From a virus, in the IMG/VR virus record IMGVR_UViG_3300032288_005424: a stretch of 64,000 bases of DNA; one strand, given 5' to 3'. The notes beneath the pieces are model-generated. The model did not search any database, was not told where the DNA came from, and worked only from the letters and a program-made list of their open reading frames with translations. The position numbers and the translations under genes were made by a program. Shown here piece by piece: positions 3,487 to 63,325 of this stretch; position 1 is the stretch's first letter, and each line of letters begins with the position of its first letter.

Positions 3487-4302
3487 TTAATTGACGTACT
3501 CTTTGAGAGATCTCTCAAGCCCGTCGGTGTTCTCAAGTTCTGACGATGATTCGTCATAGTAGTTTTTATAGCGTTCTTCTAAAAGAGCTGAGGCTTTTCC
3601 AAAGCCCAGTTGATCTAGTATTCGAATTGCGAGCCAATCCGCTTCTCTTTCTTGTCTTTCATCGTACTTAGCAAGACGATTCGATTCATGATGATTCAAT
3701 ACTGAGTGAGAAATTTCGTGAGCCTCAATCGCAAGAAGATGATCTTGTGTTAGATTCTGGTGTTCAACCTGGACTCCGTCTATGAATACTGTTTTTGAGT
3801 TTAGGTCAGCGAAGGCTGTTCCCAACCAGTCAAATATCTTGGCAACATTTCCGTAAAGTTCATCTTCTGGCCAGAGTACCAAAATTGTCCAACTTGGGTC
3901 AATCTCACTTTTCCAAACGGCACTAGGTTCTTGAGAAGTTTCATCTGAGCTCTCAGTTAAATTGTACTTCTTCATTTTTGAAGCCCGTCGACCTGTTAGG
4001 TCTCTCCAAAGTTCTCGAACGTCCGGTTGGGCCAAGGTATCGGCTTGTACCATTGAGTAGAACTGATTATCTGAATTTTGCAACATCGCAAAAAATTCAT
4101 CAAGAGTCGGTTTCTTCGGCAAGGCCTCAATCCTAGGTTTTAGTCTTCTGAACATTGGAAATAGCTCAGTTTCGTACTTGTCTCCAGTATGTGGGTTTCT
4201 TCCGAATTTACGATTAATTCCCAGATCACTAACTTTCTTTAGCGGCCTAGATTGAGCGGCATTTTCAAGTAACCAGTCATTAAATTTAAGTAAAGTCTTC
4301 AT
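3487..4302 (-). CDS. CTS-like N-terminus plus HExxH metallopeptidase-like protein
   Basis: N-terminus MKTLLKFNDWLLENA (family motif); HEISH zinc-binding motif (LAIEAHEISHSVLNHH). Confidence 0.5.
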   Translation of the reverse strand: MKTLLKFNDWLLENAAQSRPLKKVSDLGINRKFGRNPHTGDKYETELFPMFRRLKPRIEALPKKPTLDEFFAMLQNSDNQFYSMVQADTLAQPDVRELWRDLTGRRASKMKKYNLTESSDETSQEPSAVWKSEIDPSWTILVLWPEDELYGNVAKIFDWLGTAFADLNSKTVFIDGVQVEHQNLTQDHLLAIEAHEISHSVLNHHESNRLAKYDERQEREADWLAIRILDQLGFGKASALLEERYKNYYDESSSELENTDGLERSLKEYVN

Positions 4303-22618: not shown

Positions 22619-22648
22619 GGGGTCCTCACAAGGGACCCCTTTTTTTTG
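22619..22648 (+). terminator. rho-independent terminator
   Basis: GGGGTCCtcacaaGGGACCCC plus T9. Confidence 0.65.
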
Positions 22649-22761
22649 TGTTTAGTAAAACCTTAAACTCAATCCAAGTATAAGACTACTGTAGCTGATT
22701 AAACAGCTTTTCATTTTTACGACTGATGGATGGGCTTCCTAATAAGGAGCCCATTCGTCGT

Positions 22762-22905: not shown

Positions 22906-23035
22906 TGAGAGATTATGATTTATTGTTATTTAACCCAAAAACCGTGCCTCCCCCGGTGAGCTCTGGAGTTGAGCCCCCAGGCCATGGGGATTCGGGTCAC
23001 AAGTACCTTCATCGCCCCCAAATAAATAAACCAGT

Positions 23036-24105: not shown

Positions 24106-24400
24106 GAGATTATTTATCAGGCCGGGTCCGTGGACTCTCGAGACATTCCCGGGCCCGGTGTCCCGCGGTGTCCGTATATGTCCCGAGTCGTGGGGCCCTC
24201 GCGACCCAGGGCAGCAGGTCCCAGGGCCCGGGGCCGGGCTCGCCGTACTCCGTAGTCCCCAGGTCCGCACAGTAGGTACCCCTTGGGCGTGGCTGGCCGG
24301 TTTACTCCCTAGTCCCGGGTAGGACCGCAGAGGGCCGTGGCAGCCCCCGGACCGGTGGTCGGCTGGGGCCCGGCTATCGGGCCCGGCTTGAGCGAGATTG

Positions 24401-24415
24401 GGTATACTAGCCTAT
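24401..24415 (+). promoter_or_regulatory. class-2 box GGTATACTAG 7 nt before a 29-aa membrane peptide ORF
   Basis: GGTATACTAGCCTAT then ATG (24416) MKRAGIRFDWAWPIVLVVVLASIIIFFIA. Confidence 0.35.
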
Positions 24416-24632
24416 ATGAAAAGAGCAGGGATAAGATTTGATTGGGCATGGCCTATAGTGCTGGTGGTAGTGTTGGCTTCTATAATAATCTTTTTTATAG
24501 CATAGGTAGACTGGGTAGGTTTACTAGACTAGGTAGGTTTAGTAGCTAGAGTAATCTCTTTACTTTTGGGTGTAGGGCGCGCCTCGGTGTTTTTGAGCGA
24601 GAAAAGGTCCACGGCCCGGCGAGCTCGGGTCT

Positions 24633-24647
24633 GGGTATAATAGACTC
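24633..24647 (+). promoter_or_regulatory. class-2 box GGGTATAATAG just upstream of the tRNA-like element
   Basis: TATAAT at 24635-24640; a TSS ~7 nt downstream would precede the element at 24651. Confidence 0.4.
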
Positions 24648-24650
24648 TAT

Positions 24651-24772
24651 AGTCAGGTGGCGGAACGGTAGACGCAACAAGTAAGCTAATGGAAAGTGTA
24701 CAATTCCATGAGGCCATTAATTCCGAGATGTAAGAGAAGTACATCGTGCCCGTTCGAATCGGGTCCTGACCA
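24651..24772 (+). ncRNA. tRNA-like element with a ~35-50 nt insertion in the anticodon region (pseudo-tRNA or unusual RNA)
   Basis: 5' AGTCAGG-TG-GCG-GAACGGTAGA-CGC (acceptor, U8, D-arm with GG) and 3' GCCCG-TTCGAAT-CGGGT-CCTGACC-A (T-arm plus acceptor pairing 6/7); the middle is 72 nt instead of 22-39. Confidence 0.3.
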
Positions 24773-24791
24773 CTAATACAAATAGATCAAC

Positions 24792-24977
24792 ATGAAAGAA
24801 CAAAAAGTACTCGTGACCGGCGATCAGGGCTCGCATGAGGTGCAGGCCAAGGTCGATGCCCTACTCGTGGAGGGTTGGCAGGTGGTGTCGGTCACCGCAC
24901 AGCACGTTTCCACAGGTTCAAGCCAGTTCTTTAGGGGCGGTTACTTCATCGTCTTTGAACGGGCGGCCGCCGAATAA
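24792..24977 (+). CDS. small hypothetical protein
   Basis: 61-aa ORF, GC-rich. Confidence 0.4.
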   Translation: MKEQKVLVTGDQGSHEVQAKVDALLVEGWQVVSVTAQHVSTGSSQFFRGGYFIVFERAAAE

Positions 24978-24985
24978 ATAACTCT

Positions 24986-25477
24986 ATGAAGTATATCAAA
25001 CTATTCGAGGAACTTGCCTCTGACCTGCCTACTCTAAGGGACGTGATCGACAATAACCCCGACGATTTCGAAGATTTTAGGTCCGCTGCGGTAGAGACCG
25101 CCTCGGCGCTTGGCCTCAAGCTCTCCGGCGAGGACAGCGAACTACAGGACATGGGGCTCATTGATGACGAGGCCCTGTTCGACCGGCTCGAGTTTGATCG
25201 TGTTAAGCTCGTCTTTAACATTACCGAACTTACCCATGCTGATGCTCCAAGGCTCAGGGCCCTGGTGCAAAAGTTTCCTGGCCTCTTCACGCTTGATTAC
25301 GATGAGATTAGGCCCGCCCGCAAAGCTGTTCCAAACAAGACTATAGACCCTGAGGTTGACCTCGAGCCCGGCGAGCCGGTGGACGTCATCGTGTGGAAGG
25401 ACCAGGCTGGCAATACCGCGGTCCAGTGGGAGAGCTACTACAATAACATGTGGTTCATGCTGGACTCAGCACTTTAA
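24986..25477 (+). CDS. CTS-like N-terminus protein, tandem paralog 1
   Basis: MKYIKLFEELASD; ~52% GC; similar throughout to 25499..26017. Confidence 0.55.
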   Translation: MKYIKLFEELASDLPTLRDVIDNNPDDFEDFRSAAVETASALGLKLSGEDSELQDMGLIDDEALFDRLEFDRVKLVFNITELTHADAPRLRALVQKFPGLFTLDYDEIRPARKAVPNKTIDPEVDLEPGEPVDVIVWKDQAGNTAVQWESYYNNMWFMLDSAL

Positions 25478-25498
25478 AAAAAAGAATAATAAACCCAA

Positions 25499-26017
25499 AT
25501 GAAATACCTTAAGATATTCGAAGAATTCAATAATTCAGAACTTGCAACTCTACAGGACGTGCTCAATCCGGACCATTATAACGGGGATGACGGTCGCCTT
25601 GAGATGTACTCAGAGGCTGCGCTTGAGACCTGTAAGATGCTTGGCGTTGCACTACCTCCGGAGTTCGCAGAGATCAATGATCTTGGTCTCATTGACCAGC
25701 ATGACCTCATGGACAGCTTACCGCTGGACTCTGTGGTTGAGGTCTTTAACATACTGGCTCTCACCCACCAGAACGAGCCGAGAGTTCGTGAATTCTGCCG
25801 CCGCTTTCCTGGTATACTAGCATACGATCCGGACACCGACGAGTATCGTCGACCTGAGAGTTCACGACAGCTTGAAGAGATCTTTATTGACTCGCCGGAA
25901 TACTGGGACGAGGTTAGGGTGGTGCTCTTTGAGGACAAGAACGGGCTGAGAGCGGTTGAATGGGAGGACCAAGACTATCTAGGCTACTTCATGCTTAGAC
26001 GGGACCTTGAAAAATAA
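25499..26017 (+). CDS. CTS-like N-terminus protein, tandem paralog 2
   Basis: MKYLKIFEEFNNSE; shares LGLID...ALTH...FPG with 24986..25477. Confidence 0.55.
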   Translation: MKYLKIFEEFNNSELATLQDVLNPDHYNGDDGRLEMYSEAALETCKMLGVALPPEFAEINDLGLIDQHDLMDSLPLDSVVEVFNILALTHQNEPRVREFCRRFPGILAYDPDTDEYRRPESSRQLEEIFIDSPEYWDEVRVVLFEDKNGLRAVEWEDQDYLGYFMLRRDLEK

Positions 26018-26043
26018 ATAATCTTGTAAAAAAAGAAACTCAC

Positions 26044-26334
26044 ATGAAGAAATTAATTAAAGGATTTCAACAATTCGTCAATGAAGCATCAGTTAATGAG
26101 ACCAAGTTAAAAAAGGACGTTGAAGAGCATTTTCACTATCCGGATGAAGACGCCGCTGATCAAGAGGCTTCTAGCAAAAGACGCAAAATTATGGATGAGC
26201 CGTATTCTGACGACGAAGACTACTCAGGAATGCGTAGTGTTATGAGAAAAAGATACAATAAAGATATGGGCATTTCTGATGATGAAGGCTCTGCTAAATC
26301 ACAAAAGATGACTAACCTCAGAAACCGTCGTTAA
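26044..26334 (+). CDS. CTS-like N-terminus small acidic protein
   Basis: MKKLIKGFQQFVNEASVNE. Confidence 0.5.
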   Translation: MKKLIKGFQQFVNEASVNETKLKKDVEEHFHYPDEDAADQEASSKRRKIMDEPYSDDEDYSGMRSVMRKRYNKDMGISDDEGSAKSQKMTNLRNRR

Positions 26335-26372
26335 TTACACGTATAATTAAAAACACTTTCATTTAATACTTG

Positions 26373-26402
26373 GGACCCGTACTTCACGGGTCTTTTTTTT
26401 TT
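26373..26402 (+). terminator. rho-independent terminator
   Basis: GGGACCCGTacttcACGGGTC plus T11. Confidence 0.65.
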
Positions 26403-26445
26403 GCCCGAACGGCTGGACGATAAATAACAATAAACTGGAATTCCA

Positions 26446-26952
26446 ATGTTCAATAACATTTCAGATATTCTTAAGAGCTTCACGCCCGCCCAGCGAATCA
26501 CGGCGCTGCTCATACTCGTGTTCACCATTGTGCTTATTAGTCTAGGCCCAAGCCTGATCGATCGCCACACGACTGACTGTTCCGAACTTGAGGTCAGGGT
26601 CAAGAGCCAACAGGTGCAGATCATGGAGCTCTCGGCTCAGGTCGAGAAACTCAATCGTGATCTCATCAGCGGCCAGAGCGAGTGCACTGCTAACCTAATT
26701 CAAAAACAGCAAGAGATCATGGGCATTGTCAATGGTATGATCGAGGAGACCCAGCGCAAGGCCGCCCTTGCAGGTCGTCGAGAGCAAATGATGAGGACCA
26801 GACCCGATCGAAGAGACGGTAGCGGAGACGGCAACGGTGAGCTCGCCTATTCAAGAGCTCCAGAGCCCGAACCTGTGCAGGTGATCGATGAGACCCTGCC
26901 CAAGCTTAAGCAGCTCAAGGCTCAAATTCAAAAAACCATGAAATCCAAGTAA
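26446..26952 (+). CDS. membrane-anchored coiled-coil protein
   Basis: N-terminal TM (ITALLILVFTIVLISLG) followed by a heptad-rich region. Confidence 0.45.
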   Translation: MFNNISDILKSFTPAQRITALLILVFTIVLISLGPSLIDRHTTDCSELEVRVKSQQVQIMELSAQVEKLNRDLISGQSECTANLIQKQQEIMGIVNGMIEETQRKAALAGRREQMMRTRPDRRDGSGDGNGELAYSRAPEPEPVQVIDETLPKLKQLKAQIQKTMKSK

Positions 26953-27917
26953 TGCCGAATGTAATAAAGTACAGCGCGAGCACCCAGACCAATGCGCTAA
27001 AAAGCGGTAACTTTTGGGTCGGGATCGGCGATGCTGACAAGGGCCCAACCGGCACCACCGGTTACTGGAACGGAATTAATCCTCCGGTCGGTGGCTACAC
27101 GTTCTATCTCAATAAAGCAGCCAACGGCCCGTCCGTTTATACTGCAGCAAATAGCTCTCAACTCATAAACCTGGTCAAGATTTTTTCTGGCACGACATTC
27201 GGTAGTGCTGCTGCCTGCATTAACTGGGCAAATGATAACCCGGACTACATGATTGTCAATCAAGAGTTTCCAATGACCATAACCGATGGCTTGCAGTTTG
27301 CATTCGATACTGACTACTCAATAAGTCACTCATCCGACGGTACCGATAAGTGGTACGACATGATAGGCGGAGCCTCATACACCAATGGGTCTGGGGCTGA
27401 CCCAGTCTGGATGAATGGAGTTGATGAAATAACCGTCTGCTGCCTGCTGGAAAAGACCGCAAGCACCGTCGGCCAATACGCGTATCATCCAATCAGCAAA
27501 TGGAACTCTGCCTATAATCTGAATGCGTCATTCGTTCTGTACCAGTTCGATGACTATCAGGGAAACGGAAACGATGGCATTCTTGGCTGGTACGGCTACA
27601 CCCAAAATTCAGGCTGGACCAACCTCACCGACCTGTTCATTAGGATGTTTCCCAACCAAACTCTAATGGTCAGCATGACTTACAGCTCCGCTGCCGGAGG
27701 TCAGATGTGGATCAATGACACAAAGGTCGGCAACCTGACCTCAGCCGGTGCCGGAGCGTTGGGCAATACTAATCATCCGACCTCGGTGTTTGGCATGTAC
27801 GGACCCATGCAGGTCGGCCCACTAAGAGTTCGCCAAGCCCTGTTCTACGATCGAGTGCTTAGCGACATGGAAATGTACTACAACTACGCAGCCGTCCAGT
27901 CAAGGCTGGTGTTTTAA
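26952..27917 (+). CDS. LamG / concanavalin-A-like lectin domain protein (tail fibre or receptor-binding candidate)
   Basis: C-terminal ...LRVRQALFYDRVLSDMEMYYNY resembles the LamG_3 ending (vaiYnRALsaaEi); start codon overlaps the upstream stop (TAATG). Confidence 0.45.
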   Translation: MPNVIKYSASTQTNALKSGNFWVGIGDADKGPTGTTGYWNGINPPVGGYTFYLNKAANGPSVYTAANSSQLINLVKIFSGTTFGSAAACINWANDNPDYMIVNQEFPMTITDGLQFAFDTDYSISHSSDGTDKWYDMIGGASYTNGSGADPVWMNGVDEITVCCLLEKTASTVGQYAYHPISKWNSAYNLNASFVLYQFDDYQGNGNDGILGWYGYTQNSGWTNLTDLFIRMFPNQTLMVSMTYSSAAGGQMWINDTKVGNLTSAGAGALGNTNHPTSVFGMYGPMQVGPLRVRQALFYDRVLSDMEMYYNYAAVQSRLVF

Positions 27918-28111
27918 CATAATCAACTAATGATGTACACAATAGAAGAACCCTATGCCAATTCAAGCACCCCACCAAAAGGAACTGTTCCCTTCTTTTT
28001 AGTAAAAGACGAGAACAACACAACCGTTTACACTGGAGTTACCAGAGCGGAGTGCCAGAAGTGGATCGATACTAATACGGCTCCATAATAAATAGAAATA
28101 AATCAAACGAT

Positions 28112-28753
28112 TTGAACGCTAATAATTTGAAATACGTTAAACTATACGAGAACTTCTTTGAGGACATGGAACGTGCAGCGGACCAAGCTCACAAGCCCGT
28201 GCCCTTTAAGAAGCAGGAGAAGAAGCCTAAGCCCGAACCGCAAGCCGAACCTCAAGAGGAGCCAGTTAAGGTTCAAGAACCCGCTGAAACCAGACCAGAA
28301 GAGGACACTACTGAAACGACGACTGAAGCACCAGCGCCTGAGGAACCCAAAACATTCAAGGACTGGCTCACAGGTAAAGTAAAAAAGCTTGTTGAGTTCG
28401 AAGAGACCGATCAGAGCGTGAGGTGCTGGGCAGAGCTTGAGAATGAAACCTCATGCCAATGGTCCATTTCAATGGAGGATTACCCAACGGTCGAGGCAAG
28501 TTTCAAGCTTGGAGCTGACACCGTCTATTTGGACGATGATACCTCTGGCGAGATTGCTCGTGAATACTACACTAAAAAGCGAGAGTACGATCCAAAACCT
28601 TGGACCGAATGCGTGCTACAGGTTGGAGCCCAATTTCCGGAATTCATGAGAAGAATGGAGAAGGAGGCAATCAATCGAGCGACCGATCAAGACATTGAAC
28701 TCTCAAAGATAATTGCAGCCCAATTCGGCACCCAAAAAACAGGCAAAAAATAA
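28112..28753 (+). CDS. CTS-like N-terminus protein with a Pro/Glu-rich linker
   Basis: MNANNLKYVKLYENFFEDME. Confidence 0.5.
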   Translation: MNANNLKYVKLYENFFEDMERAADQAHKPVPFKKQEKKPKPEPQAEPQEEPVKVQEPAETRPEEDTTETTTEAPAPEEPKTFKDWLTGKVKKLVEFEETDQSVRCWAELENETSCQWSISMEDYPTVEASFKLGADTVYLDDDTSGEIAREYYTKKREYDPKPWTECVLQVGAQFPEFMRRMEKEAINRATDQDIELSKIIAAQFGTQKTGKK

Positions 28754-28763: not shown

Positions 28764-29096
28764 ATGAAAAATTTAAAAGCATTCAATCAATTCATACATG
28801 AAGAACTCGATAAGGACGAAACTGGCGAGCTTAGAAGCATGGGTTTCTCTGATTACTCAGCTCCTTTCAGAGAACGTTATCAGGCATTAGTCGAAGAATG
28901 GGGTTCTGATCCTGAAGTAAATGCAGCAATCGATACTTTAAAATCCAGGTTCCGCGAACTGTTCGCAAAGCACATAGATTCCGATTCAGATGATGATGCT
29001 GAGGAGATTGAACAACTGAGAACATGGATGTACGATGCCAACGGTATTGACGATATCGGATGGTTCGAGTACATTTTTATCAATGACCTTTACTAA
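28764..29096 (+). CDS. CTS-like N-terminus acidic protein, AT-rich paralog of 10227..10565
   Basis: MKNLKAFNQFIHEE; ELRSMGFSDYSAP...DPEVNAAIDTLKSRFRELFAKH. Confidence 0.5.
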   Translation: MKNLKAFNQFIHEELDKDETGELRSMGFSDYSAPFRERYQALVEEWGSDPEVNAAIDTLKSRFRELFAKHIDSDSDDDAEEIEQLRTWMYDANGIDDIGWFEYIFINDLY

Positions 29097-29271: not shown

Positions 29272-29877
29272 ATGAAAATAACAGATGACGTAATCGTTAA
29301 ATTTTTTGGGCACGGCCGTGGATTCACAATGACCTCAATTAAAAGATGGGGCGGATTCATAAAGGACGAAGACGATCTTGAGCATGCCCAGTTTCATGCA
29401 ATCCGTAGTGCGGTTTCAGCCAAGGACCGTGAGATTGAATTTGAGAATGAGGTTCACATGGTGAATTACCTAATGAAGAATTGTTATTGGGGTTGGTGTG
29501 AGGCCGTTAAACGTAGGCTTAGATTACCAGTCGTATTGGAAAGTCAGCTGATTCCAGCTGGGGCAGAAGAAGATCGAGCACCTGTCAACAAGCTTGAAGA
29601 GTCGGTTGAGCCCAAGGAAATGGTGCTCGATCCTCACAGGCTACACGGAATCGCAAAACACCTTGTGCTTCAAGAACTCGGTCCAGTATCGGCCAGCATT
29701 TTTGAACTACACTACGTCAATGAATTAATTGTCAAGGATGTTGCAAAAGAGCTTGAACTCAAACCTGAGATCGTTCGAAATAGACTTACCACAATCAAGA
29801 GATTGCTCAATAGAAGGCTCAAGCATTTCGCGAATAATAATTATCAAATAGGCCGAGGCCGGCTTCACGCTTATTAA
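29272..29877 (+). CDS. ECF-like sigma factor / sigma-70 region-4 transcription factor
   Basis: Region-2-like FHAIRSAVSA...NYLMKNCYWGWCEAVKRR and region-4 HTH IFELHYVNELIVKDVAKELELKPEIVRNRLTTIKRLLNRRL. Confidence 0.5.
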   Translation: MKITDDVIVKFFGHGRGFTMTSIKRWGGFIKDEDDLEHAQFHAIRSAVSAKDREIEFENEVHMVNYLMKNCYWGWCEAVKRRLRLPVVLESQLIPAGAEEDRAPVNKLEESVEPKEMVLDPHRLHGIAKHLVLQELGPVSASIFELHYVNELIVKDVAKELELKPEIVRNRLTTIKRLLNRRLKHFANNNYQIGRGRLHAY

Positions 29878-29979
29878 TCCAGGCATACTTATTTTAAAAA
29901 CGGGATCCTTTAGACCCCGTTTTTTTATTTTACGGGAGTCCGGCAAATAAATAACTAGGTAAATAATTAGTAACTCCAA

Positions 29980-30204
29980 ATGAAGCACATCAAACTATTT
30001 GAGCAATTCATAACCGAATTCTACGCGGCTGAGCCGGCTACCAGACCGGCACCTACCATTGCTCCGACCAAGCCTGCTACAAGACCAAAACCGGGCCCAA
30101 TTCCTACAAAGAAACCGTTCAAACAACCTGAGCCAGCAAAAGCTCAAGCTGAAGACGTGTTGGCTCGTCTAAAAGAACTAGAGAATGAGAATGAAATCGT
30201 TTAA
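29980..30204 (+). CDS. CTS-like N-terminus small Pro-rich protein
   Basis: MKHIKLFEQFITEF. Confidence 0.45.
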   Translation: MKHIKLFEQFITEFYAAEPATRPAPTIAPTKPATRPKPGPIPTKKPFKQPEPAKAQAEDVLARLKELENENEIV

Positions 30205-31642
30205 ACAATTCATGAATGAGGCCGATATCAAGGGAAATCCAGCTATTTCGCCAGAGTACTTAGCCTCCCTAAACAAGAGAGCTGAGGCTAGTGCCAGAGA
30301 GATTGAAGAACGATATGGCCGTGAAGTGATGAATCTAATGAAGTTTGCGAAAGAAGTACAGGAAATTCAAAATAAGAAAGACGACACTGATAAATCAGCA
30401 AATGGGCCAACCGATAATGCTTCAAAGATCACTAAACTTGAGGCTTTAACCAAAAGTGTAATAGAACAGTTTTACGGTCCTATCCTTAGAGATACAGAAC
30501 TAGACATTAGAATTCCTACTGACCCACGTGAAATGAAGCAAAAAATGGATCAGGAAAAGTCGGAGGCTGATGAGATGCCGGCCTTCAAAGAAATTGAGGA
30601 CGATGCCACTCGAACAGCGATTCACAAGCGTAAGATCCTAAACATGATTACTCAGGGCGAGGCCATCAATTCAAAGAAAATGCTTTTGAGCGATGTTAAT
30701 AGGGACGGATTAGCCGAAATATTTGGAAAAGCTGATTCTGAAAAAATGATAGAGCTCTTAATTAAGATAACCGATATCTGTAATGCCAGAGACTGGCGTA
30801 TACCCGAGGAAGTTGCAGAATTAATGATCGAACAGGGGCAATCTCTGAGCGGCGTTTCTAAGATTGAATGGAAACCTAACAGGTCAAAACAAGATGACTC
30901 AGCCGATGAACCTGAAAATGATGAAGATTCACCAGCAGATGATCATTCAACCGATACTGCAAAGCTAATCATTTTGGGAATGGATCAAGCAATGCTTTTC
31001 CATGAAGCAGTCAAAGCAATTTACGGCTTAATTAATCAGGGTGGGCTTGCTCATCTTGATGATGAGACCATTGCAAAGGTCTTTATGAACGCTGACACTC
31101 CAAGGGATGAGGTTCAAGATCTTAAGAGAGCTAAGCTAACTGCTGCGGATCTTAGAGATTTCATCAATGATTTCCCAGAGGTTGCGACTATTGAAAACGG
31201 TCGAGAATACGTTTGGGGTAAGATGATTGATGCAAGCATTCTACCCGATGCAAAGTTCCTTGAACTAATGCGATTGATCTTCACAGCAGCTCCTCTTTAC
31301 AGACAGGTTAGTGAGAACGAACCGCCTTACTCAGAAGAGGAAATCTCTGCTGCTCGCGAAGCAATGCCTAAAGCCCAAGCGGTCGTTAACAAGTTGATTC
31401 AGCTAATACAAGACGAGCTCGCTGACTGGGAAGATTCAGTTTCGGGTTCAGAATACGATGATGAAGATTACGGAGACTCTAGCTTCGATAACGCGTTCGA
31501 TAATGGTTTTTTACCAAGAGCAGCCAGAGGCGAAATGAGCCAGTCTGAAATTCAGAGTTTGATTGACCAAGCACTAGATCGCCGAGACTTTGCTGAAGTC
31601 CAAAGACTTTCTAAACTATTGAAAGAGAGTAATTTAAGTTAA
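30191..31642 (+). CDS. CTS-like N-terminus large acidic protein
   Basis: MKSFKQFMNEADIK, near-identical to the T4 internal-protein CTS MKTYQEFIAEA; ~484 aa. Confidence 0.55.
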   Translation: MKSFKQFMNEADIKGNPAISPEYLASLNKRAEASAREIEERYGREVMNLMKFAKEVQEIQNKKDDTDKSANGPTDNASKITKLEALTKSVIEQFYGPILRDTELDIRIPTDPREMKQKMDQEKSEADEMPAFKEIEDDATRTAIHKRKILNMITQGEAINSKKMLLSDVNRDGLAEIFGKADSEKMIELLIKITDICNARDWRIPEEVAELMIEQGQSLSGVSKIEWKPNRSKQDDSADEPENDEDSPADDHSTDTAKLIILGMDQAMLFHEAVKAIYGLINQGGLAHLDDETIAKVFMNADTPRDEVQDLKRAKLTAADLRDFINDFPEVATIENGREYVWGKMIDASILPDAKFLELMRLIFTAAPLYRQVSENEPPYSEEEISAAREAMPKAQAVVNKLIQLIQDELADWEDSVSGSEYDDEDYGDSSFDNAFDNGFLPRAARGEMSQSEIQSLIDQALDRRDFAEVQRLSKLLKESNLS

Positions 31643-32466
31643 TGAAGCATTTAAAACTATTTGAAAGTTGGGTCAATGAGGCTCTAACCGCAGATCAAAT
31701 TGCTGCACAGATTCAAGCAGCAGTCGCCGGCATTGGCACGGACGAGACTGCTCTAACCTCAGCAATCCGATCAATTCCTGACGCAGCTTCTTTAGTTAAA
31801 ATCAACAAGACTTTAAAAGCAGGTCATGAGGATCAGCAGAAAGCATGGGCATATCCAAGCGTTGGTGATGCAATTAATGGAGAGCTTGGATTGTTTGACT
31901 CTGATTACAAGACTCAGATAATGACCCACATCAAGAACATTAGAGCAGAACAGTACCTTAATTCGTTCAAAGCCCCGCCTCCTCCAACCGACCCGGTCAT
32001 TGCATCAATCAAGGATCGCGTAATAAAACATGAAGGCTCAAAGCCTTTCAAATACCTGGATTCCAGAAAGATCCCAACTATTGGAGTAGGTTTTAATCTT
32101 ACTCGAGGGGACGCTTCTCTCCAATTAAAAAAGGTTGGAGCTAATCCTGAAAAGATCAAGTCGGGTAAATCTCCATTGACTCAGGACCAGATAAATGCTC
32201 TGCTTTTTACTGATCTTAAACAGGCAAAGTTAAATGCCCAAGATCTAGTTCCAAACATGGAAACTCTACCCACCCAAGTTCAAGGAGTCTTAACTGAAAT
32301 GGTTTTCAACCTGGGCAAGACTGGGCTTTCTGAGTTCAAGAATTTTCTAGCCCACATAAAACAGAAAAACTTTGATGCTGCCTCAGACGAAATGCTAAAG
32401 TCTACATGGGCAAAACAGGTCGGCGAAAGAGCCATAACCTTAGCAGGTCTCATCAAAGCAGCCTAA
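31642..32466 (+). CDS. CTS-like N-terminus plus GH24 (T4-type) lysozyme domain
   Basis: MKHLKLFESWVNEA; HEGSKPFKYLDSRKIPTIGVGFNL matches the GH24 E-G-x(n)-Y-x-D-x-x-G-x-x-T-I-G-x-G core. Confidence 0.65.
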   Translation: MKHLKLFESWVNEALTADQIAAQIQAAVAGIGTDETALTSAIRSIPDAASLVKINKTLKAGHEDQQKAWAYPSVGDAINGELGLFDSDYKTQIMTHIKNIRAEQYLNSFKAPPPPTDPVIASIKDRVIKHEGSKPFKYLDSRKIPTIGVGFNLTRGDASLQLKKVGANPEKIKSGKSPLTQDQINALLFTDLKQAKLNAQDLVPNMETLPTQVQGVLTEMVFNLGKTGLSEFKNFLAHIKQKNFDAASDEMLKSTWAKQVGERAITLAGLIKAA

Positions 32467-32491: not shown

Positions 32492-33037
32492 ATGGACTTA
32501 AATTTACGCTACGTCGATCCAATGGTCGACATGGCCAAAACCGGTGATGATCGTGCTCTTGCAGATTTGTGGAATCAATGGAAGCCTTTAGCCTATAAGA
32601 CGGCTGCTAAATACTTAACCGATCGGGGCGAACTTGATCAAGCTGTAGCTCAGGGACTTGCTAAAGCTCTCATGAATCTAGACAAGTGGAGCGGAACTGG
32701 CCCTTTCGCTGCCTGGTTAGCAAGGGTCGTTTGTAACGAAACTGTTAATTGGATTAGGCAATTCAAGACAAAGGCAAAGGTATTTTCTGACATTGATGGA
32801 ATTGATGTTAAAATCGAAGACGTTCATGCGGACAGGCCGGCTCTAAATTTAATTAGGGGAATCGTTGATAATCTTCCGACTAGACAACAATTTGCATTCA
32901 AGCTTGTTGTCTATGAGGATTTATCGTATGAGGAGGCTGCTGTGCACATGGGCACAACAGCCGGTGCAGTCAAGTCAAACGTGCATGATGCAAAGACTAA
33001 ACTAAGAAAATTGTTGTCTGGGACTGGGCTTCGATAA
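32492..33037 (+). CDS. ECF-type RNA polymerase sigma factor
   Basis: Region 2 (DLWNQWKPLAYKTAAKYL...FAAWLARVVCNETVNWIRQ) and region 4 (LPTRQQFAFKLVVYEDLSYEEAAVHMGTTAGAVKSNVHDAKTKLRKLL). Confidence 0.65.
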   Translation: MDLNLRYVDPMVDMAKTGDDRALADLWNQWKPLAYKTAAKYLTDRGELDQAVAQGLAKALMNLDKWSGTGPFAAWLARVVCNETVNWIRQFKTKAKVFSDIDGIDVKIEDVHADRPALNLIRGIVDNLPTRQQFAFKLVVYEDLSYEEAAVHMGTTAGAVKSNVHDAKTKLRKLLSGTGLR

Positions 33038-33089: not shown

Positions 33090-33962
33090 ATGCCAAAGTA
33101 CATAAAGCTATTTGAATCTTTCATTGGTGAAGCCGCTGATGACCTGATGACGGTCTTCAACGATACAAGCAAGGTCAAATGGACCGTTTACGCTTCAATA
33201 TTTAAACTTTCCAGCAAGAAACTGGGTAAGATGATGGCGGTTACCGATGCCAATAAGGTTAAGGAATTGGGTTACAACGTGTTAGCCATGTTAACTGTAG
33301 CAGACAATGCAGTCATTACTAAATTAAAGGATGCGGGTGGACTTGCTCTTACTACTCAATCCGGAACTCTAGAACAATTGCCTGGAGGAGAACCTAACTA
33401 CGCATATTCGGCTAGGTTCGGATTCAAAGTAACTGAAAAATTAGGTAGCGCAAAGATAGATTCAATCTCTGATATACTAGATGGACTTGGAACAACCGGT
33501 TCCGCCGGAACAGCCGGTACTTCAGGTTCAGCAGGCAGTGCTGCTGATAAAATGTTCGGAGCAGCTTCAGCCAATTTCGATAAAGCGATGCAAGAGGCTG
33601 GCGTAAAACAGATTGCCGCCTACTTACGAATGATTAACAATCCAGCTCTACAATCAGCAGCCGGTCAAGACCCGTCAATCAAGACTCTTCTTGATGCTCA
33701 AGCAGCGGCGGTTACGCAAGCTGATAAAGATGCAAAGGAGAGAGAAATTGAGCCCAAGGTCAAAGCCGCATTGACTTCAAGGTTGGCTCAAGTTCAAGCC
33801 GACTTCAGCACTACGCAAGATCCTAACCTAAAGAAACAGGCTCAAGATAAAGCTCAACAGCTAGACTCTCTAATAAAAAATTACAAGCCTGAATTTGGAC
33901 CTGCACTTAATGTGGGTTCAGCTGGAACATCAGGTTCAGCTGGAATTTCTGCACAAAAATAA
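33090..33962 (+). CDS. CTS-like N-terminus protein with duplicated GSAGTSGSAG segments
   Basis: MPKYIKLFESFIGEA; internal and C-terminal S/G/A/T repeats. Confidence 0.5.
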   Translation: MPKYIKLFESFIGEAADDLMTVFNDTSKVKWTVYASIFKLSSKKLGKMMAVTDANKVKELGYNVLAMLTVADNAVITKLKDAGGLALTTQSGTLEQLPGGEPNYAYSARFGFKVTEKLGSAKIDSISDILDGLGTTGSAGTAGTSGSAGSAADKMFGAASANFDKAMQEAGVKQIAAYLRMINNPALQSAAGQDPSIKTLLDAQAAAVTQADKDAKEREIEPKVKAALTSRLAQVQADFSTTQDPNLKKQAQDKAQQLDSLIKNYKPEFGPALNVGSAGTSGSAGISAQK

Positions 33963-33971: not shown

Positions 33972-34838
33972 TTGAAATACATTAAATTATTTGAAGAGCA
34001 TTCGCTAAATTCACTAAATGCACAAAAGGCCGATTTAGATGGGCTAAAGGACATAGGGATCATTTCTCCAACAGAGTACACAGATAAGATAAAGGACATC
34101 AATCGTCAAATAAAGTCTATGTTAACAACCGGCTCAATGAATACAATGTATTCAAAGAAATGGTTCGATGATATTAGAACTGTACCTGAGTTCAAATGGC
34201 TAGTTGATGTAGTTGATTCTCCTGAATACTCAAACTTGGTTTCAAAGGGAGTTGCTTTATCTTCAAGTTTTACTCAATTAATGAATCATACACTGGTCTT
34301 TTCGAAAAATCAGGAAAGGCGAGTAGAGTCTGATTATGCAATTGGATTCTTTGGAGCTACTAAAACGGTTAGACGAATCGTACCTAAAACTGGGAATCGG
34401 GACATGGACATGATAATAAAGATTTTCAAGTCTCCAACCGAAGATGACTTCTTCAAATCAGCCATGTCGTACATCGCTGACACAATTGACTTTACGACCA
34501 ACTATTTTAGTTCAAAGCGAGCAGTCAAAGCTGAGCTTTTAAAACAAGAAACCGTTGCCGAATTCAAAAAGGTTATGGTCGAATTCATTAAGAAAAAAAT
34601 GCCAGGAGCAGATGATTCGCAAATCCGAAAATTGTCAGACCATCTTCATGCTTTAATTGGATGGAACCTAGCAGAGATCAAACCTGCAACAAAAGCATTG
34701 AAGACTTGGCTAACAACAGATAAGACGGTAAATCTGTCCATATACTCGTATGCTCCACTTGATGGAGAACTTCAACAGCTCCTATTAAACGATCCAAGAT
34801 TAATTGTTCACAATCGAGCTCAACGAAGTTTAACATAA
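33972..34838 (+). CDS. CTS-like N-terminus protein
   Basis: MKYIKLFEEHSLNS. Confidence 0.5.
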   Translation: MKYIKLFEEHSLNSLNAQKADLDGLKDIGIISPTEYTDKIKDINRQIKSMLTTGSMNTMYSKKWFDDIRTVPEFKWLVDVVDSPEYSNLVSKGVALSSSFTQLMNHTLVFSKNQERRVESDYAIGFFGATKTVRRIVPKTGNRDMDMIIKIFKSPTEDDFFKSAMSYIADTIDFTTNYFSSKRAVKAELLKQETVAEFKKVMVEFIKKKMPGADDSQIRKLSDHLHALIGWNLAEIKPATKALKTWLTTDKTVNLSIYSYAPLDGELQQLLLNDPRLIVHNRAQRSLT

Positions 34839-34856: not shown

Positions 34857-36329
34857 ATGAAGTACCTAAGGATATTTGAAAGTTGGATGACCAACGAAGA
34901 TCAGATGATCGATGAAAACATGCAGGCCGCAAAGTCCTTCATGCTAAAAAGACTTGCTGATCGTTTGCGTAAGCCGGTTCAAGAGCTTTCGCCTGAAGAA
35001 CAGACTCAGGCCCTAAGCGATCCAAAGTACAAGGAGATCCTTGCTCTACTTGGAGAAAAGTACAGAGGATACGCTGGATCCTTCGTTAATTTCGTATTCC
35101 TTCAAAGAATAGCAATTCAACAATTACAACTTCTATTGGCTGAGATTGAAGCGAATCGTGAATTCATCAGCTCACTACCTCATACGATTGAGGCCTATTC
35201 AAAAGGTAATCCAGACCAAACCTCTAGAATTTCAGGATTTGAGGCATTAATGGACCAATTCGCGCAAATTAAGTTTCGTAGAAAAGGTAAATGGATCATT
35301 GACAAATTACCTGGAGTTATAAGAGCCAAAGCAAGAGAGGCGAGTCCTGAAGAACAACAGGCACTATTAAGAATTGGAGCTACTCTTGCGGATCAGGATC
35401 CGGAAATTCAAAAGCGATTAATGAAAAAGGTTAATCGTTTCTTGAGCAAGCCAATTGCAGATTTTATTGCCTATGCTCGTAACTTCGCTGATGCTCAAAA
35501 CACAGAAGGCGCGCCCAAATTGGCTGCACAGGCTGAAGATCTTGCACCGGCGGTTAATGTGTTATACGATGATGAGCGTTACGTAGTAATGTCAATCAGA
35601 ACTGAAGCTGCACAAAAGGCCCTATGTTCCGCTGCTAACTGGTGTATTAACACATGGGCATGGAAGCAGTACGCAACCGGTGCAGTACAGATAAACATCT
35701 TTGATTTTGGAGTTCCTAGCACAGATCCTTTACATATAGTGGGCACAACGATTTACTACAACGGTAAGGTTAGAACCTCACATGACATCAACGACATTGC
35801 TATCAAGAAATCTGACGATCCAGCAGAACACTTTACCAAATTGGGATATCCGACCGATGTTGTTGATTCAATCGTTAAACCGCTTGCAGCCGAATGCGCG
35901 GTCAAGCAAGTGCTAGATGAAGGAGCATCGGCTAAAACCGGCAGAGCGATCATAGACAAGATCATGACGGCAGGTCACAGCTTGCAAATAGCTGATCAAA
36001 CAATGTCGGCCTATGCTGAGCAGGAAATAGCTAATGTGATTGATCAGGAAATGGGTCAACTAATTAAAATGCAGGACGTGATTGACTCATTCAAACAGTA
36101 CGGTGTTGTATCAACGTTTGCCGCAAAGCTATATAATAAATTGATAGTCGGCTCGGCGATTTCACAAAACGACAACGAAGCGATCTTGGCAAAGACCGCA
36201 CGAGGTTTCAAGTTGATGGAGGCTGCAATCGCTGCAGGTACTTTTGAAAAACAGGCGAATACTAAACGTAAGATTGAAGCAATCCTTGCGGTCAAGGACC
36301 AGATTCTGGCCATGATCTCTAACCAGTAA
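34857..36329 (+). CDS. CTS-like N-terminus large protein
   Basis: MKYLRIFESWMTNED; 490 aa. Confidence 0.5.
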   Translation: MKYLRIFESWMTNEDQMIDENMQAAKSFMLKRLADRLRKPVQELSPEEQTQALSDPKYKEILALLGEKYRGYAGSFVNFVFLQRIAIQQLQLLLAEIEANREFISSLPHTIEAYSKGNPDQTSRISGFEALMDQFAQIKFRRKGKWIIDKLPGVIRAKAREASPEEQQALLRIGATLADQDPEIQKRLMKKVNRFLSKPIADFIAYARNFADAQNTEGAPKLAAQAEDLAPAVNVLYDDERYVVMSIRTEAAQKALCSAANWCINTWAWKQYATGAVQINIFDFGVPSTDPLHIVGTTIYYNGKVRTSHDINDIAIKKSDDPAEHFTKLGYPTDVVDSIVKPLAAECAVKQVLDEGASAKTGRAIIDKIMTAGHSLQIADQTMSAYAEQEIANVIDQEMGQLIKMQDVIDSFKQYGVVSTFAAKLYNKLIVGSAISQNDNEAILAKTARGFKLMEAAIAAGTFEKQANTKRKIEAILAVKDQILAMISNQ

Positions 36330-38918: not shown

Positions 38919-40076
38919 ATGAAACTTTTTAAATTCACCGAATTCATAAATGAGGGCCAATTCTACCAAGATCAATTGAATCCAATGGTCTGGGACGGAG
39001 AAGAGCTTAACCCGGAGATCAGAACCAAGCTTCTACAGATCGCTCATGACTTCTACGAGGACTTAAAAGTTAGTGCTCCAATTGAGGACATTCAACTTAC
39101 AGGTTCCCTAGCTAACTATAACTGGACCGAGTACTCTGACTTTGACGTACACGTCATCATGGATCTTTCTAAGATAAACGACGACGTTGAACTTGTAAAG
39201 ATAGCAATGGAAGGTTTAAAAACTGTATGGAATCAACGCCATCCTGTAAATATTGGAGGATACGATGTTGAGTTGTACGCTCAGGACATGAATCAATTAC
39301 ACCTGGCATCAGGTCTGTACTCTTTACTAAAGGGCGAATGGCTTAGAAAGCCAGATTACAATCCGCCAAGCGTAGATCCAAAGGACGTTCAGATAAAATC
39401 CGACCACTACATTTATGCTATAAAGCAACTCATGAAAGAGATTCAAGGTGCTGGACCTGAAGAGGCTCGTGATATTATGGAAAGAGCTTCTGTTCTAAAG
39501 AAAAAGATCTCAAGGTCAAGGGACGAGCAGCTCGCTCATAAGGGCGGAGAGTTCTCGGTCGAGAATCTAGTATTTAAAAGATTACGTAATGAAGGTTGGA
39601 TCGGTAAATTGATTGACCTAAAATCTCAAGCATATTCACACATCTATTCAGAACCATCGGATGCAGTTGATTCTAAATTCTCAACTGAATCGGATGTAGT
39701 AGACGAATCTGTTTCTTTCGGTAAGGGTAACACAGTCGTTGTAATGGGTCCCGATGTCGAGGGAGGTCGTAGGCTTTTTGTGTTCTACGTCGATTGGGTC
39801 AGAGAAGTTGAAAGAGCTGGCCGTTGGGTAAACATGGTTGGACTCTCTTCTCCGATGATGATTCGTCAGGAGAACGGAAATCTAATCGCAAAGCCAGTAA
39901 TGTTTAATTCTCAAACTCTACAGAAGTACGCGGGTCTTAGCGATTACCAAGTCGTTCTAAATTCAAAAACGAAAACTCCGTTTTGGTTCGAGACAGTTAA
40001 ATTCTCAAACCATATTCCAATGCTTAGAGCATTAAGAAACCAATTAATGGGAATTCCTGGAGTTAAGATACCTTAA
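38919..40076 (+). CDS. CTS-like N-terminus plus pol-beta-superfamily nucleotidyltransferase-like protein
   Basis: MKLFKFTEFINEG; LTGSLANYNWTEYSDFDVHVIMD fits the minimal NTase motif hG[GS]x(9-13)Dh[DE]h. Confidence 0.45.
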   Translation: MKLFKFTEFINEGQFYQDQLNPMVWDGEELNPEIRTKLLQIAHDFYEDLKVSAPIEDIQLTGSLANYNWTEYSDFDVHVIMDLSKINDDVELVKIAMEGLKTVWNQRHPVNIGGYDVELYAQDMNQLHLASGLYSLLKGEWLRKPDYNPPSVDPKDVQIKSDHYIYAIKQLMKEIQGAGPEEARDIMERASVLKKKISRSRDEQLAHKGGEFSVENLVFKRLRNEGWIGKLIDLKSQAYSHIYSEPSDAVDSKFSTESDVVDESVSFGKGNTVVVMGPDVEGGRRLFVFYVDWVREVERAGRWVNMVGLSSPMMIRQENGNLIAKPVMFNSQTLQKYAGLSDYQVVLNSKTKTPFWFETVKFSNHIPMLRALRNQLMGIPGVKIP

Positions 40077-47889: not shown

Positions 47890-48717
47890 TTATTTTAATA
47901 GAGCGTAGTACTCTTTGAAGTGTTTCAAGCGGTCAGGTAATCCGATTGTTCCACCGTTAACTCTTTTAGTAACTGCGGTCACAGTAGCGTCGTCTGCTCC
48001 CTTATCGCAAATTGCCCAAAGACCATTTGACTGAAAAAAGAATGCAGCAGAAGCCAAAGGATACTTTGTTGCAACTAGATCAGGATTTGAGATAACATCT
48101 TCATCAACAGTTTTGTCGAATCTAGCGTAGTTGTCCTTTCCTGTCAATTGGATGTAACCTCGACCGCGGAATTTGTAACCTTCGCCAGTTGCCTCAGCTC
48201 CATTACCCATACGGTTACCGTAAACTAGGTTAGCAATTTTTTCTGGCTTGCGCTCGTATTCTAGAGCCTTTGCGTCGGTTGGGAAGTACTTAGCGAAAAT
48301 ACCTCTTAGACCTTTCGCTCCGTAATTTAGGTTTTCTTGAACTGCCTTAAACCCGCCAGACTCATGGCCGCATTGTGCCAAGAAGTGAGCAAGTCTCAGT
48401 GGAGTTGTAATACCGAATTTTGCAGCAGTATCGGGGATCTGAGCGATCACTGAATCGGGAACGTGTCCTTTTAGATTAGCTAGTTTAAATTCGCTAGCCG
48501 GGATTGCAACTTGTGCAGCTGCTTGAGCTGGGGCTGCTCCCATTAATTTTGACCAAGAGGCCGGGCCAACAATACCGTCAGCCGTTAAGCCATTCGCGGC
48601 TTGCCATTCTTTTACCTTGGCTTCAGTACCGGGTCCAAATTGACCGTCTGCTGCAAGACCAAGTTTTTCCTGAAGTTGTTTGACTTCAGGGCCGGAAGAT
48701 CCATTCTTTAGTAACAT
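47890..48717 (-). CDS. endolysin: peptidoglycan-binding domain plus GH19 (chitinase-like) lysozyme
   Basis: PG_binding_1 repeats (GSSGPEVKQLQEKLG...DGQFGPGTEAKVKEWQ); GH19 core RLAHFLAQCGHESGGF...GRGYIQLTGKDNY. Confidence 0.7.
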   Translation of the reverse strand: MLLKNGSSGPEVKQLQEKLGLAADGQFGPGTEAKVKEWQAANGLTADGIVGPASWSKLMGAAPAQAAAQVAIPASEFKLANLKGHVPDSVIAQIPDTAAKFGITTPLRLAHFLAQCGHESGGFKAVQENLNYGAKGLRGIFAKYFPTDAKALEYERKPEKIANLVYGNRMGNGAEATGEGYKFRGRGYIQLTGKDNYARFDKTVDEDVISNPDLVATKYPLASAAFFFQSNGLWAICDKGADDATVTAVTKRVNGGTIGLPDRLKHFKEYYALLK

Positions 48718-62845: not shown

Positions 62846-63325
62846 ATGCTCAAGCCACTAGTTCAGAGCTTCAATGAGTACACTATCAACGAGGCCAAAT
62901 CAAATCATCCAGCTAAATATAAAGCGCCTGAGGGCAGTTCCCGAGACTCTAAGTTAGACAAGGCACAGGCTCTACTGAAGGCCGGTAAAAAGGAGGAGGC
63001 TTATAAGTTGCGTGATGAAATGGAAAAGGCCGAAAGATCTAAACTGGATTGGAAGAACACTCCGCGTAAGGATTCACAAGTTGATGAAGCTAAAAAGGCT
63101 GGTAGAAACTTAAGCAAAGAAACTCTTGCAAAGATCAGAGCGGTTGCAACCAAAAAAGGTTACTCATTCGCCGATCTCAAAAGAGAATACGTCAAGGGCC
63201 TAGGTGCTTTCTACTCTTCCGGTTCAAGACCTGGAATGACGGCTCATCAATGGGCAATGGCAAGAGTAAATTCAGCTTCTCCAAGTAAATCTTGGGCAAA
63301 CGTAAAAAAGGTTGGAAAAAAATAA
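62846..63325 (+). CDS. CTS-like N-terminus basic protein
   Basis: MLKPLVQSFNEYTINEA. Confidence 0.5.
   Translation: MLKPLVQSFNEYTINEAKSNHPAKYKAPEGSSRDSKLDKAQALLKAGKKEEAYKLRDEMEKAERSKLDWKNTPRKDSQVDEAKKAGRNLSKETLAKIRAVATKKGYSFADLKREYVKGLGAFYSSGSRPGMTAHQWAMARVNSASPSKSWANVKKVGKK

Follow-up and report, generated by a model that had tools for sequence, protein, structure and literature searches.

The internal proteins of T-even phages are diverse and have only a capsid targeting sequence (CTS) in common (PMC3012670). In T4, the first ten residues of the internal protein IPIII are enough for packaging; among them, residues 4 and 7 (Tyr and Phe) determine targeting, residues 8 and 10 (Ile and Glu) determine processing, and gp21 cleaves after L/I-x-E (PMC9026906). 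In the phiKZ-like giant phages (phiKZ, 201phi2-1, and SPN3US), many head-internal proteins lose N-terminal propeptides through a gp21-related protease, which cuts after x-x-Glu (PMC5694885, PMC9026906). As for annexins, a survey of prokaryotic members in 2014 recorded none in viruses (PMC3894181). The present work concerns an uncultured jumbo phage of Bacteroidota, IMG/VR virus record IMGVR_UViG_3300032288_005424, the 64,000 nucleotides of which were analyzed and are hereafter called the window, and in particular its gene at 31642–32466 on the plus strand, the product of which joins a CTS-like leader and, as judged from profiles and structural models, a single annexin repeat to a muramidase of the T4 lysozyme type (GH24). 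CTS-type targeting and GH24 lysins are known already, and the present gene varies on both; the viral annexin repeat is the most concrete new element of the finding.

Domain organization of the annexin-lysozyme

The initial annotation had placed a GH24 domain behind a shared N-terminal peptide in this open reading frame (ORF). The coordinates proved exact, the domain matches PF00959, and the lysozyme motif that had been quoted is EGSKPFKYLDSRKIPTIGVGFNL, at residues 131–153. That account of the protein held for the peptide and the catalytic domain and overlooked the annexin repeat between them, which matters for any mechanism. The gene and its parts are as follows:

31642..32466, plus strand: whole gene, 274 aa from an ATG start, with leader, annexin repeat, Pro-rich linker, and GH24 muramidase
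31642..31680, plus strand: 13-residue N-terminal leader MKHLKLFESWVNE, a CTS-like tag
31690..31938, plus strand: single annexin repeat of five helices, residues 17–99 (profile against the PDB, and Foldseek)
31729..31746, plus strand: GIGTDE, the annexin AB-loop motif (type II Ca2+ site), residues 30–35
31882..31884, plus strand: Glu81 in GEL, the acidic residue that may cap the annexin Ca2+ site as a ligand
31939..31992, plus strand: linker, residues 100–117, with PPPP at 112–115
31993..32460, plus strand: catalytic domain of the GH24 (T4 lysozyme) type, residues 118–273
32032..32034, 32059..32061, and 32077..32079, plus strand: catalytic residues E131, D140, and T146, respectively

The protein has a mass of ~29.9 kDa at full length and would have ~28.2 kDa if cut after E13. 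Its leader carries an aromatic pair, F7 and W10, followed by V11-N12-E13, an aliphatic-x-Glu triplet that forms the putative protease site. An AlphaFold (AF2) model of the 274 residues, built on a 57-sequence alignment, reached a mean predicted local distance difference test score (pLDDT) of 87.5. In this model, the linker has little secondary structure (its length varies in alignment A1), and residues 1–13 have a pLDDT below 50 and are not packed on the rest of the protein. The leader was rejected as a part of the annexin fold on account of this low pLDDT, its position outside the five helices, and its occurrence on unrelated proteins. A signal peptide or signal-arrest-release (SAR) domain was ruled out too, as the protein is devoid of an export signal, a SAR or membrane segment, and any hydrophobic stretch (maximal 19-residue hydropathy, 0.98). 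The gene product is a soluble protein made up of a flexible leader, an annexin repeat, a Pro-rich linker, and a GH24 muramidase whose Glu/Asp/Thr triad is intact.

The GH24 catalytic domain

The catalytic assignment is supported by several comparisons. In Pfam, residues 129–271 match PF00959 (Phage_lysozyme; E = 2.7e-11), scoring 44.3 bits where the curated threshold is 22.3, and in PHROGs the protein matches endolysin and baseplate-hub-lysozyme families, together with a weak match of its lysozyme part to phrog_2083, the "internal virion lysozyme motif" (E = 2.3e-6). A profile of 57 full-length homologs hits T4 lysozyme structures with E ~ 1e-19 and aligns E131, D140, and T146 to E11, D20, and T26 of T4 lysozyme, all three being invariant or at least 90% conserved among the homologs. 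The modeled domain has a pLDDT above 90, and its Foldseek matches are phage lysozymes and gp5, with a probability of 1.0. The closest GH24 enzymes of cultured phages are only ~30%–34% identical. By family membership, triad, and predicted fold, the domain is confirmed as a GH24 domain of the T4 lysozyme type.

Given that PHROG and tblastn matches of the GH24 domain are largely baseplate hub lysozymes of the T4 gp5 type, and that Collar- and Laminin_G-domain (fiber-like) genes lie 2–5 kb downstream in a 253-kb relative, the enzyme could be a virion hydrolase mounted on the tail or baseplate, attached through the leader or the annexin repeat. However, leader, annexin repeat, linker, and GH24 domain cover the 274 residues fully, with no OB-fold, beta-helix, or other tail domain, the similarity to gp5 is limited to the lysozyme domain, and the leader also occurs on enzymes that are unlikely as tail parts. 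Tail attachment is thus very unlikely, and the narrower case of a gp5-like tail spike or baseplate hub was rejected on the missing OB-fold and beta-helix flanks and the confinement of the gp5 similarity.

A divergent annexin repeat

Searched against the PDB, a profile of the N-terminal 112 residues (A3) had annexins only as its top matches, namely annexin VI (E = 2.4e-18), annexin III (8e-12), annexin XII (3.6e-10), and annexin V (~2e-6). When the annexin domain was modeled separately (pLDDT 85.5), its best 50 PDB matches in Foldseek were all annexins or giardins, the best of them with E = 0.08 and a probability of 1.0 over ~80 aligned columns; the small size of the domain accounts for the modest E-values. 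The Pfam annexin model PF00191 gave no match at E < 1 to the single sequence. Within the repeat, G30, G32, T33, and E35, which align with the annexin GxGTDE motif, are invariant or nearly so, and Glu81, which aligns with the annexin "GEL", is invariant across the 57 homologs. Two features set it apart: the spacing from GxGT to the acidic residue of the candidate Ca2+ site is longer than the canonical 38 residues, and eukaryotic annexins have a four-repeat core, of which one repeat only is present here. From the profile comparisons and the model, residues 17–99 are a divergent single annexin repeat.

The N-domain profile was searched against 1.84 billion representative proteins, which returned 429 matches, and 44 single-repeat proteins of this set were scanned for domains. 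PG_binding_1 was found as the partner in nine of them and Phage_lysozyme in seven, with TseH, Pesticin, PG_binding_3, and a beta-lactamase-family domain occurring once each. The repeat is therefore a recurrent companion of cell-wall domains, and its place beside domains that bind or cleave peptidoglycan suggests an unrecognized envelope-binding module for muralytic enzymes. In the orthologous locus of one relative (L348 456–1406, protein P0131; also P0079), the leader, the annexin repeat, and the linker are kept, while the GH24 domain is swapped for a domain of 190 residues. By eye, the latter has an EGGYY...GET..GID pattern and resembles GH108; searches of Pfam, PHROGs, and the PDB gave nothing usable for it, and no claim is made.

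The leader and the T4 capsid targeting sequence

The N-termini of T4 IPII and IPIII read MKTYQEFIAE/A and that of IPI reads MKTFKEF...ITE/A (from NC_000866; the slash denotes the cut). Set against IPIII, the lysozyme leader has F7, W10, V11, and E13 in the places of Y4, F7, I8, and E10, followed by Ala14; the 3-1-2 spacing is the same and the register is shifted by three. The initial annotation had called the peptide CTS-like, a label that gains support from the four mapped IPIII positions, which are reproduced in spacing and chemistry, and, as described below, from selection on the leader at the protein level, its presence on many unrelated proteins, and its occurrence on contigs encoding T4-type gp23 capsid proteins with a propeptide ending in I-N-E. 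The agreement itself is a match of sequence patterns.

Leaders were counted with a regular expression for the N-terminal pattern at ORF starts. Applied to 35 kb of T4, it recovered ipI, ipII, and ipIII and nothing else. The pattern was found in 13 of the 97 ORFs of the window (~13%) and in 74 of 318 (23%) around the orthologous lysozyme locus in relatives, compared with 4 of 813 (0.5%) in unrelated phage loci. The exact T4-type spacing occurs in 8 of the 13 window tags, an aromatic pair F/Y...F/W in 12 (the exception, at 33972, has His in the second position), and [LIVM]-x-E somewhere in all 13. Besides the lysozyme, the tagged genes of the window are the following:

29980..30204, plus strand: 74-aa basic, Pro/Lys-rich protein (MKHIKLFEQFITE...), first gene of the lysozyme unit
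30185..31642, plus strand: acidic 485-aa protein
25499..26017, plus strand: tagged ORF (MKYLKIFEEF...)
26044..26334, plus strand: tagged ORF (MKKLIKGFQQFVNEA...)
28127..28753, plus strand: tagged ORF with a TTG start (MKYVKLYENFFED...)
28764..29096, plus strand: tagged ORF (MKNLKAFNQFIHEE...)
33090..33962, plus strand: tagged ORF (MPKYIKLFESFIGEA...)
33972..34838, plus strand: tagged ORF with a TTG start (MKYIKLFEEH...)
34857..36329, plus strand: tagged 490-aa ORF (MKYLRIFESWMTNE...)
38919..40076, plus strand: tagged nucleotidyltransferase-like ORF (MKLFKFTEFINEG...)
62846..63325, plus strand: tagged DUF5824 ORF (...SFNEYTINEA...)
3487..4302, minus strand: tagged ORF (MKTLLKFNDWLLENA...)

The 485-aa protein, when read from its second ATG (30191), begins with MKSFKQFMNEA, the closest match to MKTYQEFIAEA of T4; the stop codon of its gene overlaps the lysozyme start (TAATG), and its pairing with the lysozyme is kept in relatives. 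The tagged proteins are mutually unrelated in sequence, including many acidic or basic ORFans and none with membrane segments, and sequence searches of Pfam, PHROGs, and the PDB returned no match for the tagged neighbors (485 aa, 490 aa, 288 aa, and others). In relatives, one tagged enzyme is flavin amine-oxidase-like, with a Rossmann fold that starts directly after the tag. The cluster shows the same pattern as the T-even internal proteins, that is, unrelated proteins with one leader.

Tag codons differ between the window paralogs while the residue pattern holds. Among 13 orthologs of the lysozyme, synonymous codon changes occur in the leader region at K2, H3, S9, N12, E13, and A14, whereas F7, E8, N12, and E13 never change as residues and W10 is invariant with the exception of L010. 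Selection therefore acts on the peptide and not on the DNA, and the leader is a portable N-terminal element under protein-level selection. In the exceptional ortholog (L010 5320–6141, IMGVR_UViG_3300032294_002470), TGA replaces the TGG codon of Trp10, for which sequencing error, a pseudogene, and recoding are all possible.

These data bear on a further explanation, in which the leader has no function and is the relic of a common 5′ gene end (promoter plus start) spread by recombination through a hyperplastic cluster, so that the lysozyme would be a plain soluble enzyme. The tagged genes are indeed clustered, their content is highly variable between relatives, and they have upstream AT-rich motifs in common. 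Nevertheless, it is the residue pattern that is conserved between paralogs and not the nucleotides of the leader, the leader is retained in homologs down to 46% identity and on contigs with a guanine-cytosine (GC) content from 0.29 to 0.45, and tagged genes also lie far from the cluster (3487–4302, 38919, and 62846). A functionless relic is accordingly highly improbable.

Different leaders in other lineages

In other phage groups, different leaders are found on relatives of the annexin-lysozyme and the tagged nucleotidyltransferase, namely KLTESDLRxIVKKVIxEQ, MKxLIKKILNES, and, in Maribacter phage Molly, K(S/T)L(V/I)E(S/T). Every one recurs on many neighboring genes and ends in [LIV]-x-Glu right before the folded part. 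Lineage-specific leaders are also found on the homologs of the window ORF at 38919 in Maribacter phage Molly and in LR745206. Such leaders on orthologs would be expected if the leader co-evolves with the scaffold and the protease. No virion proteome has been published for Maribacter phage Molly, which is cultured.

Clusters of genes with such leaders were also seen. In Molly (L351, Molly_1), at least seven ORFs within 13131–22383 have the K(S/T)L(V/I)E(S/T) leader, among them the homolog of the window ORF at 38919. In uncultured phages (L349 846–14117; A5 members P0339, P0341, P0385, P0395, P0319, P0352, and others), the leaders all end in [LIV]-x-E, and additional stereotyped forms are NEDIxRLRQIMSY...LLxEQ and EEEKNRILxLHExATKxxYLxEQ.

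Head-assembly genes in related phages

No DNA similarity was detected between the window and GenBank phages. The closest GenBank relatives are the uncultured huge phages LR745206 and LR756502, the topoisomerase II of which is 56% identical. LR745206 has a T4 gp17-like terminase and a gp18-like sheath protein and, in T4 gene order, a Portal_T4 protein (E = 2.7e-57), a 707-aa ORF, and a capsid protein of the Gp23 family (E = 1.8e-26). The ORF between portal and capsid (L095 16547–18670) joins an N-terminus weakly similar to gp21 to a long, repetitive (YSEYLAENLDKNI), coiled-coil, scaffold-like region. Capsid proteins of the LR745206 type occur with 66%–80% identity on hundreds of metagenomic contigs, and every one carries the PF07068 annotation. 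Their N-terminal region is conserved as ...EFHSINE/NAY..., with I-N-E where T4 gp23 has L-T-E/A, and by sequence this site resembles the [IVM]-N-E of the tag.

On many contigs, ORFs tagged with MK(H/Y)(I/L)KLFE.(F/W) are located within 10 kb of a gp23-type capsid gene, so the tag and T4-type head genes share single contigs in the wider clade. One tagged ORF (L311 7890–9194) directly follows the capsid gene; its C-terminus looks DUF814/NFACT-like by eye. The first 61 residues of this ORF (MKYIKPFKIFKE/DATSSSSTAGMGSV...) align with the capsid cleavage region (...HQINE/NAYANATTAGMGAV...) with E = 0.001, which suggests that the final Glu of the tag may be equivalent to the capsid maturation site.

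Genomic setting and promoter-like motifs

The full-length homologs of the lysozyme are metagenomic, 46%–97% identical, and carried on contigs of up to 253 and ~271 kb. The window itself encodes T4-type topoisomerase II subunits, several sigma-70-family genes, a Tad6 homolog, and an SPFH protein. Its ORF at 49455–51380 (plus strand, 641 aa) pairs a cohesin domain with a C-terminal sorting domain for type IX secretion (Por_Secre_tail), a host-like export signal that is specific to Bacteroidota and points to a host in that group. Three further features of the window are as follows:

29946..29953, plus strand: promoter-like motif AATAAATA, heading the unit 29980, 30185, 31642 (and possibly on to 32492)
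32492..33037, plus strand: untagged sigma-70-family (ECF-like) factor directly downstream of the lysozyme, a position kept in relatives
47890..48717, minus strand: modular endolysin, PG_binding_1 plus GH19, outside the tagged set (phrog_181, E = 1.5e-70; Pfam)

The separate canonical endolysin that the initial annotation had recognized at 47890–48717 is the last of these, with both domains as described. The motif AATAAATA occurs at 17 sites in the window against 4.8 expected, nearly all of them on the coding strand and within ~35 nt of a start codon, including 29946, 33058, 26013, 28087, 4309 (minus strand), and 48735 (minus strand). It heads the lysozyme unit, the tagged unit from 33090, three more tagged genes, and the GH19 endolysin. 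It may represent a late-promoter element similar to T4 TATAAATA or, alternatively, belong to an A-rich leader. On a 227-kb contig (L325), an endolysin 70.8% identical to that of the window lies 8 kb upstream of the gp23 gene, and both genes are preceded by an ATATATA element, where the window endolysin has AATAAATAA; this arrangement is, indirectly, consistent with a late promoter like T4 TATAAATA. Another motif, TATATAGA, was ruled out as the promoter of the tagged genes, as it is missing from the window.

Proposed function of the annexin-lysozyme

The initial annotation had taken the protein for an ejected lysozyme that accompanies the DNA into the cell rather than the lysis enzyme, a reading that is supported in part. 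Taken with the T4 precedent, it is tentatively plausible that the leader is a T4-type CTS cut after Glu13 and that the annexin-lysozyme is stored in the head, ejected with the DNA, and kept at the envelope while it cuts peptidoglycan. In this mechanism, the protein would be docked through F7 and W10 to the scaffolding core of the growing prohead, and a prohead protease of the gp21 type would cut after V11-N12-E13 to leave mature Ala14–Ala274 (~28 kDa) inside the head, with the other tagged cargo proteins packaged alongside. At infection, the cargo would exit the head with the DNA. After arrival in the periplasm, Ca2+-dependent binding of the annexin repeat to anionic lipid, or to some other ligand, of the envelope would keep the muramidase at the entry site so that peptidoglycan is opened locally, and lysis at the end of the cycle would be left to the GH19 and peptidoglycan-binding enzyme at 47890–48717.

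A number of points weigh against packaging and ejection. The conclusion is drawn by analogy, and binding of bacterial envelope lipid by a single annexin repeat is likewise a proposal. The tag sits on 13%–23% of the local genes, housekeeping-looking enzymes included, which is more than the T4 precedent predicts. Because the leader residues (K, Y, I, L, F, E, and N) have AT-rich codons, a role in translation initiation is possible, in a host without Shine-Dalgarno sites. The lysozyme gene is found among sigma-factor and DNA-metabolism genes, outside any structural module. With respect to head assembly, the protease assignment for LR745206 rests on weak matches (16.8 bits to Peptidase_S77, below the cut-off of 27; tblastn to gp21, E = 0.11). 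The head module of the lysozyme's own family (GC 0.39–0.45, 253–271-kb contigs) was not retrieved in scans with the LR745206 capsid, the L241 capsid, or a 15-sequence capsid alignment, and a degenerate DNA pattern, a scan of genome contigs, and a protein search likewise gave none. These scans returned only gp23-type loci, none of them from lysozyme-bearing contigs, and when the head proteins of T4 and LR745206 were compared with all the family loci by local tblastn, no match was obtained, gp21-type protease and scaffold included. The gp23-type loci checked have a GC content of ~0.27–0.36, versus 0.39–0.45 in the window and the lysozyme-bearing relatives, and TATATAGA, the motif upstream of the capsid genes of the low-GC relatives, does not occur in the window. 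Relatives are thus shown to have head machinery of the T4 type, and for this phage we infer it.

The main competing explanation is that the protein is an accessory or second endolysin, or a late cytoplasmic muramidase, which is never packaged and reaches the wall through holin lesions when infection ends; the annexin repeat would then be an envelope- or wall-binding module, comparable to PG_binding_1 in the GH19 enzyme, and the leader would serve otherwise, by binding a phage hub protein, by marking the protein for stability or degradation, or as a ramp for translation initiation. The protein has no export signal, its order of a binding and then a catalytic domain is typical of jumbo-phage endolysins, and single annexin-like repeats are recurrently fused to peptidoglycan-binding or peptidoglycan-hydrolase domains. 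Moreover, AATAAATA is common to the lysozyme unit and the GH19 endolysin, the gene is placed outside any structural module, and the leader, made of residues with AT-rich codons, is also present on ordinary-looking enzymes (flavoenzyme-like and nucleotidyltransferase-like). On the other hand, a complete PG_binding_1 and GH19 endolysin is already encoded, and no holin- or spanin-like membrane protein is adjacent to the lysozyme at 31642, which is flanked by genes for a sigma factor and for soluble, tagged ORFans. The leader, furthermore, fits the four mapped determinants of the T4 CTS and is kept in a specific order of residues despite synonymous changes, for which composition alone is insufficient, and the leaders of different lineages all end in [LIV]-x-E before a folded domain. 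An unpackaged lysin is thus possible, if somewhat unlikely; it and packaging both rank ahead of tail attachment and a functionless relic.

Extended to the whole clade, the packaging hypothesis would describe widespread uncultured jumbo phages of freshwater Bacteroidota. These would use CTS-style leaders on a tenth or more of their genes, and the heads would be loaded with a large, fast-evolving arsenal of injected enzymes, including the first viral annexin-domain protein, a Ca2+- and membrane-anchored muramidase that opens the wall from the periplasm, and the leaders of each lineage, ending in [LIV]-x-Glu, would have co-evolved with its own protease and scaffold. As a whole, this broader picture is doubtful. 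Should the leader indeed be a functional signal for capsid targeting, the proteins injected by a large clade of uncultured jumbo phages could be predicted from sequence by a simple rule, a mechanism described mainly in T-even phages would reach phages of Bacteroidota, and a ready-made tag for loading foreign proteins into such phages would be at hand. If it is not, what is left is a second lysozyme with an unusual binding domain, a minor result.

Other features of the window

Sigma-70-family genes number at least three (15868–16587, 29272–29877, and 32492–33037, all on the plus strand), two of which are interleaved with the tagged cluster. Beside the GH19 endolysin are a signal-peptide-bearing protein resembling DUF481/outer-membrane beta-barrels (46815–47564, minus strand) and a small Phage Tail Collar protein (47571–47879, minus strand); no holin was recognized next to it. 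A third cell-wall hydrolase of the window is an NlpC/P60 peptidase at 2618–3118 (plus strand, E = 8e-24), and a PG_binding_1 protein is encoded just past the left end of the window on source contigs (L090 2700–3080). The Tad6 homolog (60358–61047, plus strand; Pfam Tad6, type I Thoeris inhibitor, E = 9e-22) is a candidate anti-defense gene. In addition, the ORF at 1451–2527 (plus strand) belongs to the histone-deacetylase family, and a Ro60/TROVE-vWA-like ORF (L087 14949–16574) is present on a source contig ~4 kb past the right end of the window. The GC content is ~0.50 in 8001–12000 and 20001–28000, versus ~0.40 elsewhere.

Comparison with known systems

The closest counterpart of the leader is the CTS of T4 IPI, IPII, and IPIII (Mullaney and Black 1996, via PMC9026906 and PMC3012670), with which it shares a short N-terminal peptide on unrelated proteins, aromatics three residues apart, and then aliphatic-x-Glu, usually followed by Ala. 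It differs in three extra N-terminal residues, a conserved K-L/I-F-E core, and its presence on 13 genes in 64 kb, enzymes included; packaging and cleavage are here proposed by analogy, the candidate protease and scaffold being those of the relative LR745206. The phiKZ-like phages also have paralogs with conserved N-termini, but their propeptides are mostly 80–130 residues long with a Ser/Ala/Gly-x-Glu site, whereas the present leader has ~13 residues and an aliphatic P3, as in T4. With the internal virion proteins of podoviruses (T7 gp16), the annexin-lysozyme would share the principle that an enzyme against the cell wall is kept in the head and leaves it before the DNA. In contrast, the podovirus proteins are core proteins of very large size, which include a lytic transglycosylase or lysozyme module, lack a CTS-type leader, and are homologous only in the catalytic domain.

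Concerning the enzyme itself, the catalytic domain, the Glu/Asp/Thr triad, and the predicted fold are shared with the GH24 muramidases T4 gpe and the lysozyme domain of T4 gp5. While gpe stands alone and the gp5 lysozyme sits in a baseplate hub protein, the GH24 domain is here preceded by a leader and an annexin repeat. The modular endolysins of jumbo phages (KZ144-type) have the same order of a binding and then a catalytic module, also without a signal peptide, but bind through PG_binding_1, in place of which the present protein has an annexin repeat, itself preceded by a leader peptide. Finally, the single-domain bacterial annexins (Cytophaga hutchinsonii; PMC3894181) have in common with it the five-helix repeat, the GxGTDE motif, and the distal acidic residue, and were first found in Bacteroidota, the same host group as here; what differs in the phage protein is that a single such repeat is fused to a muramidase.

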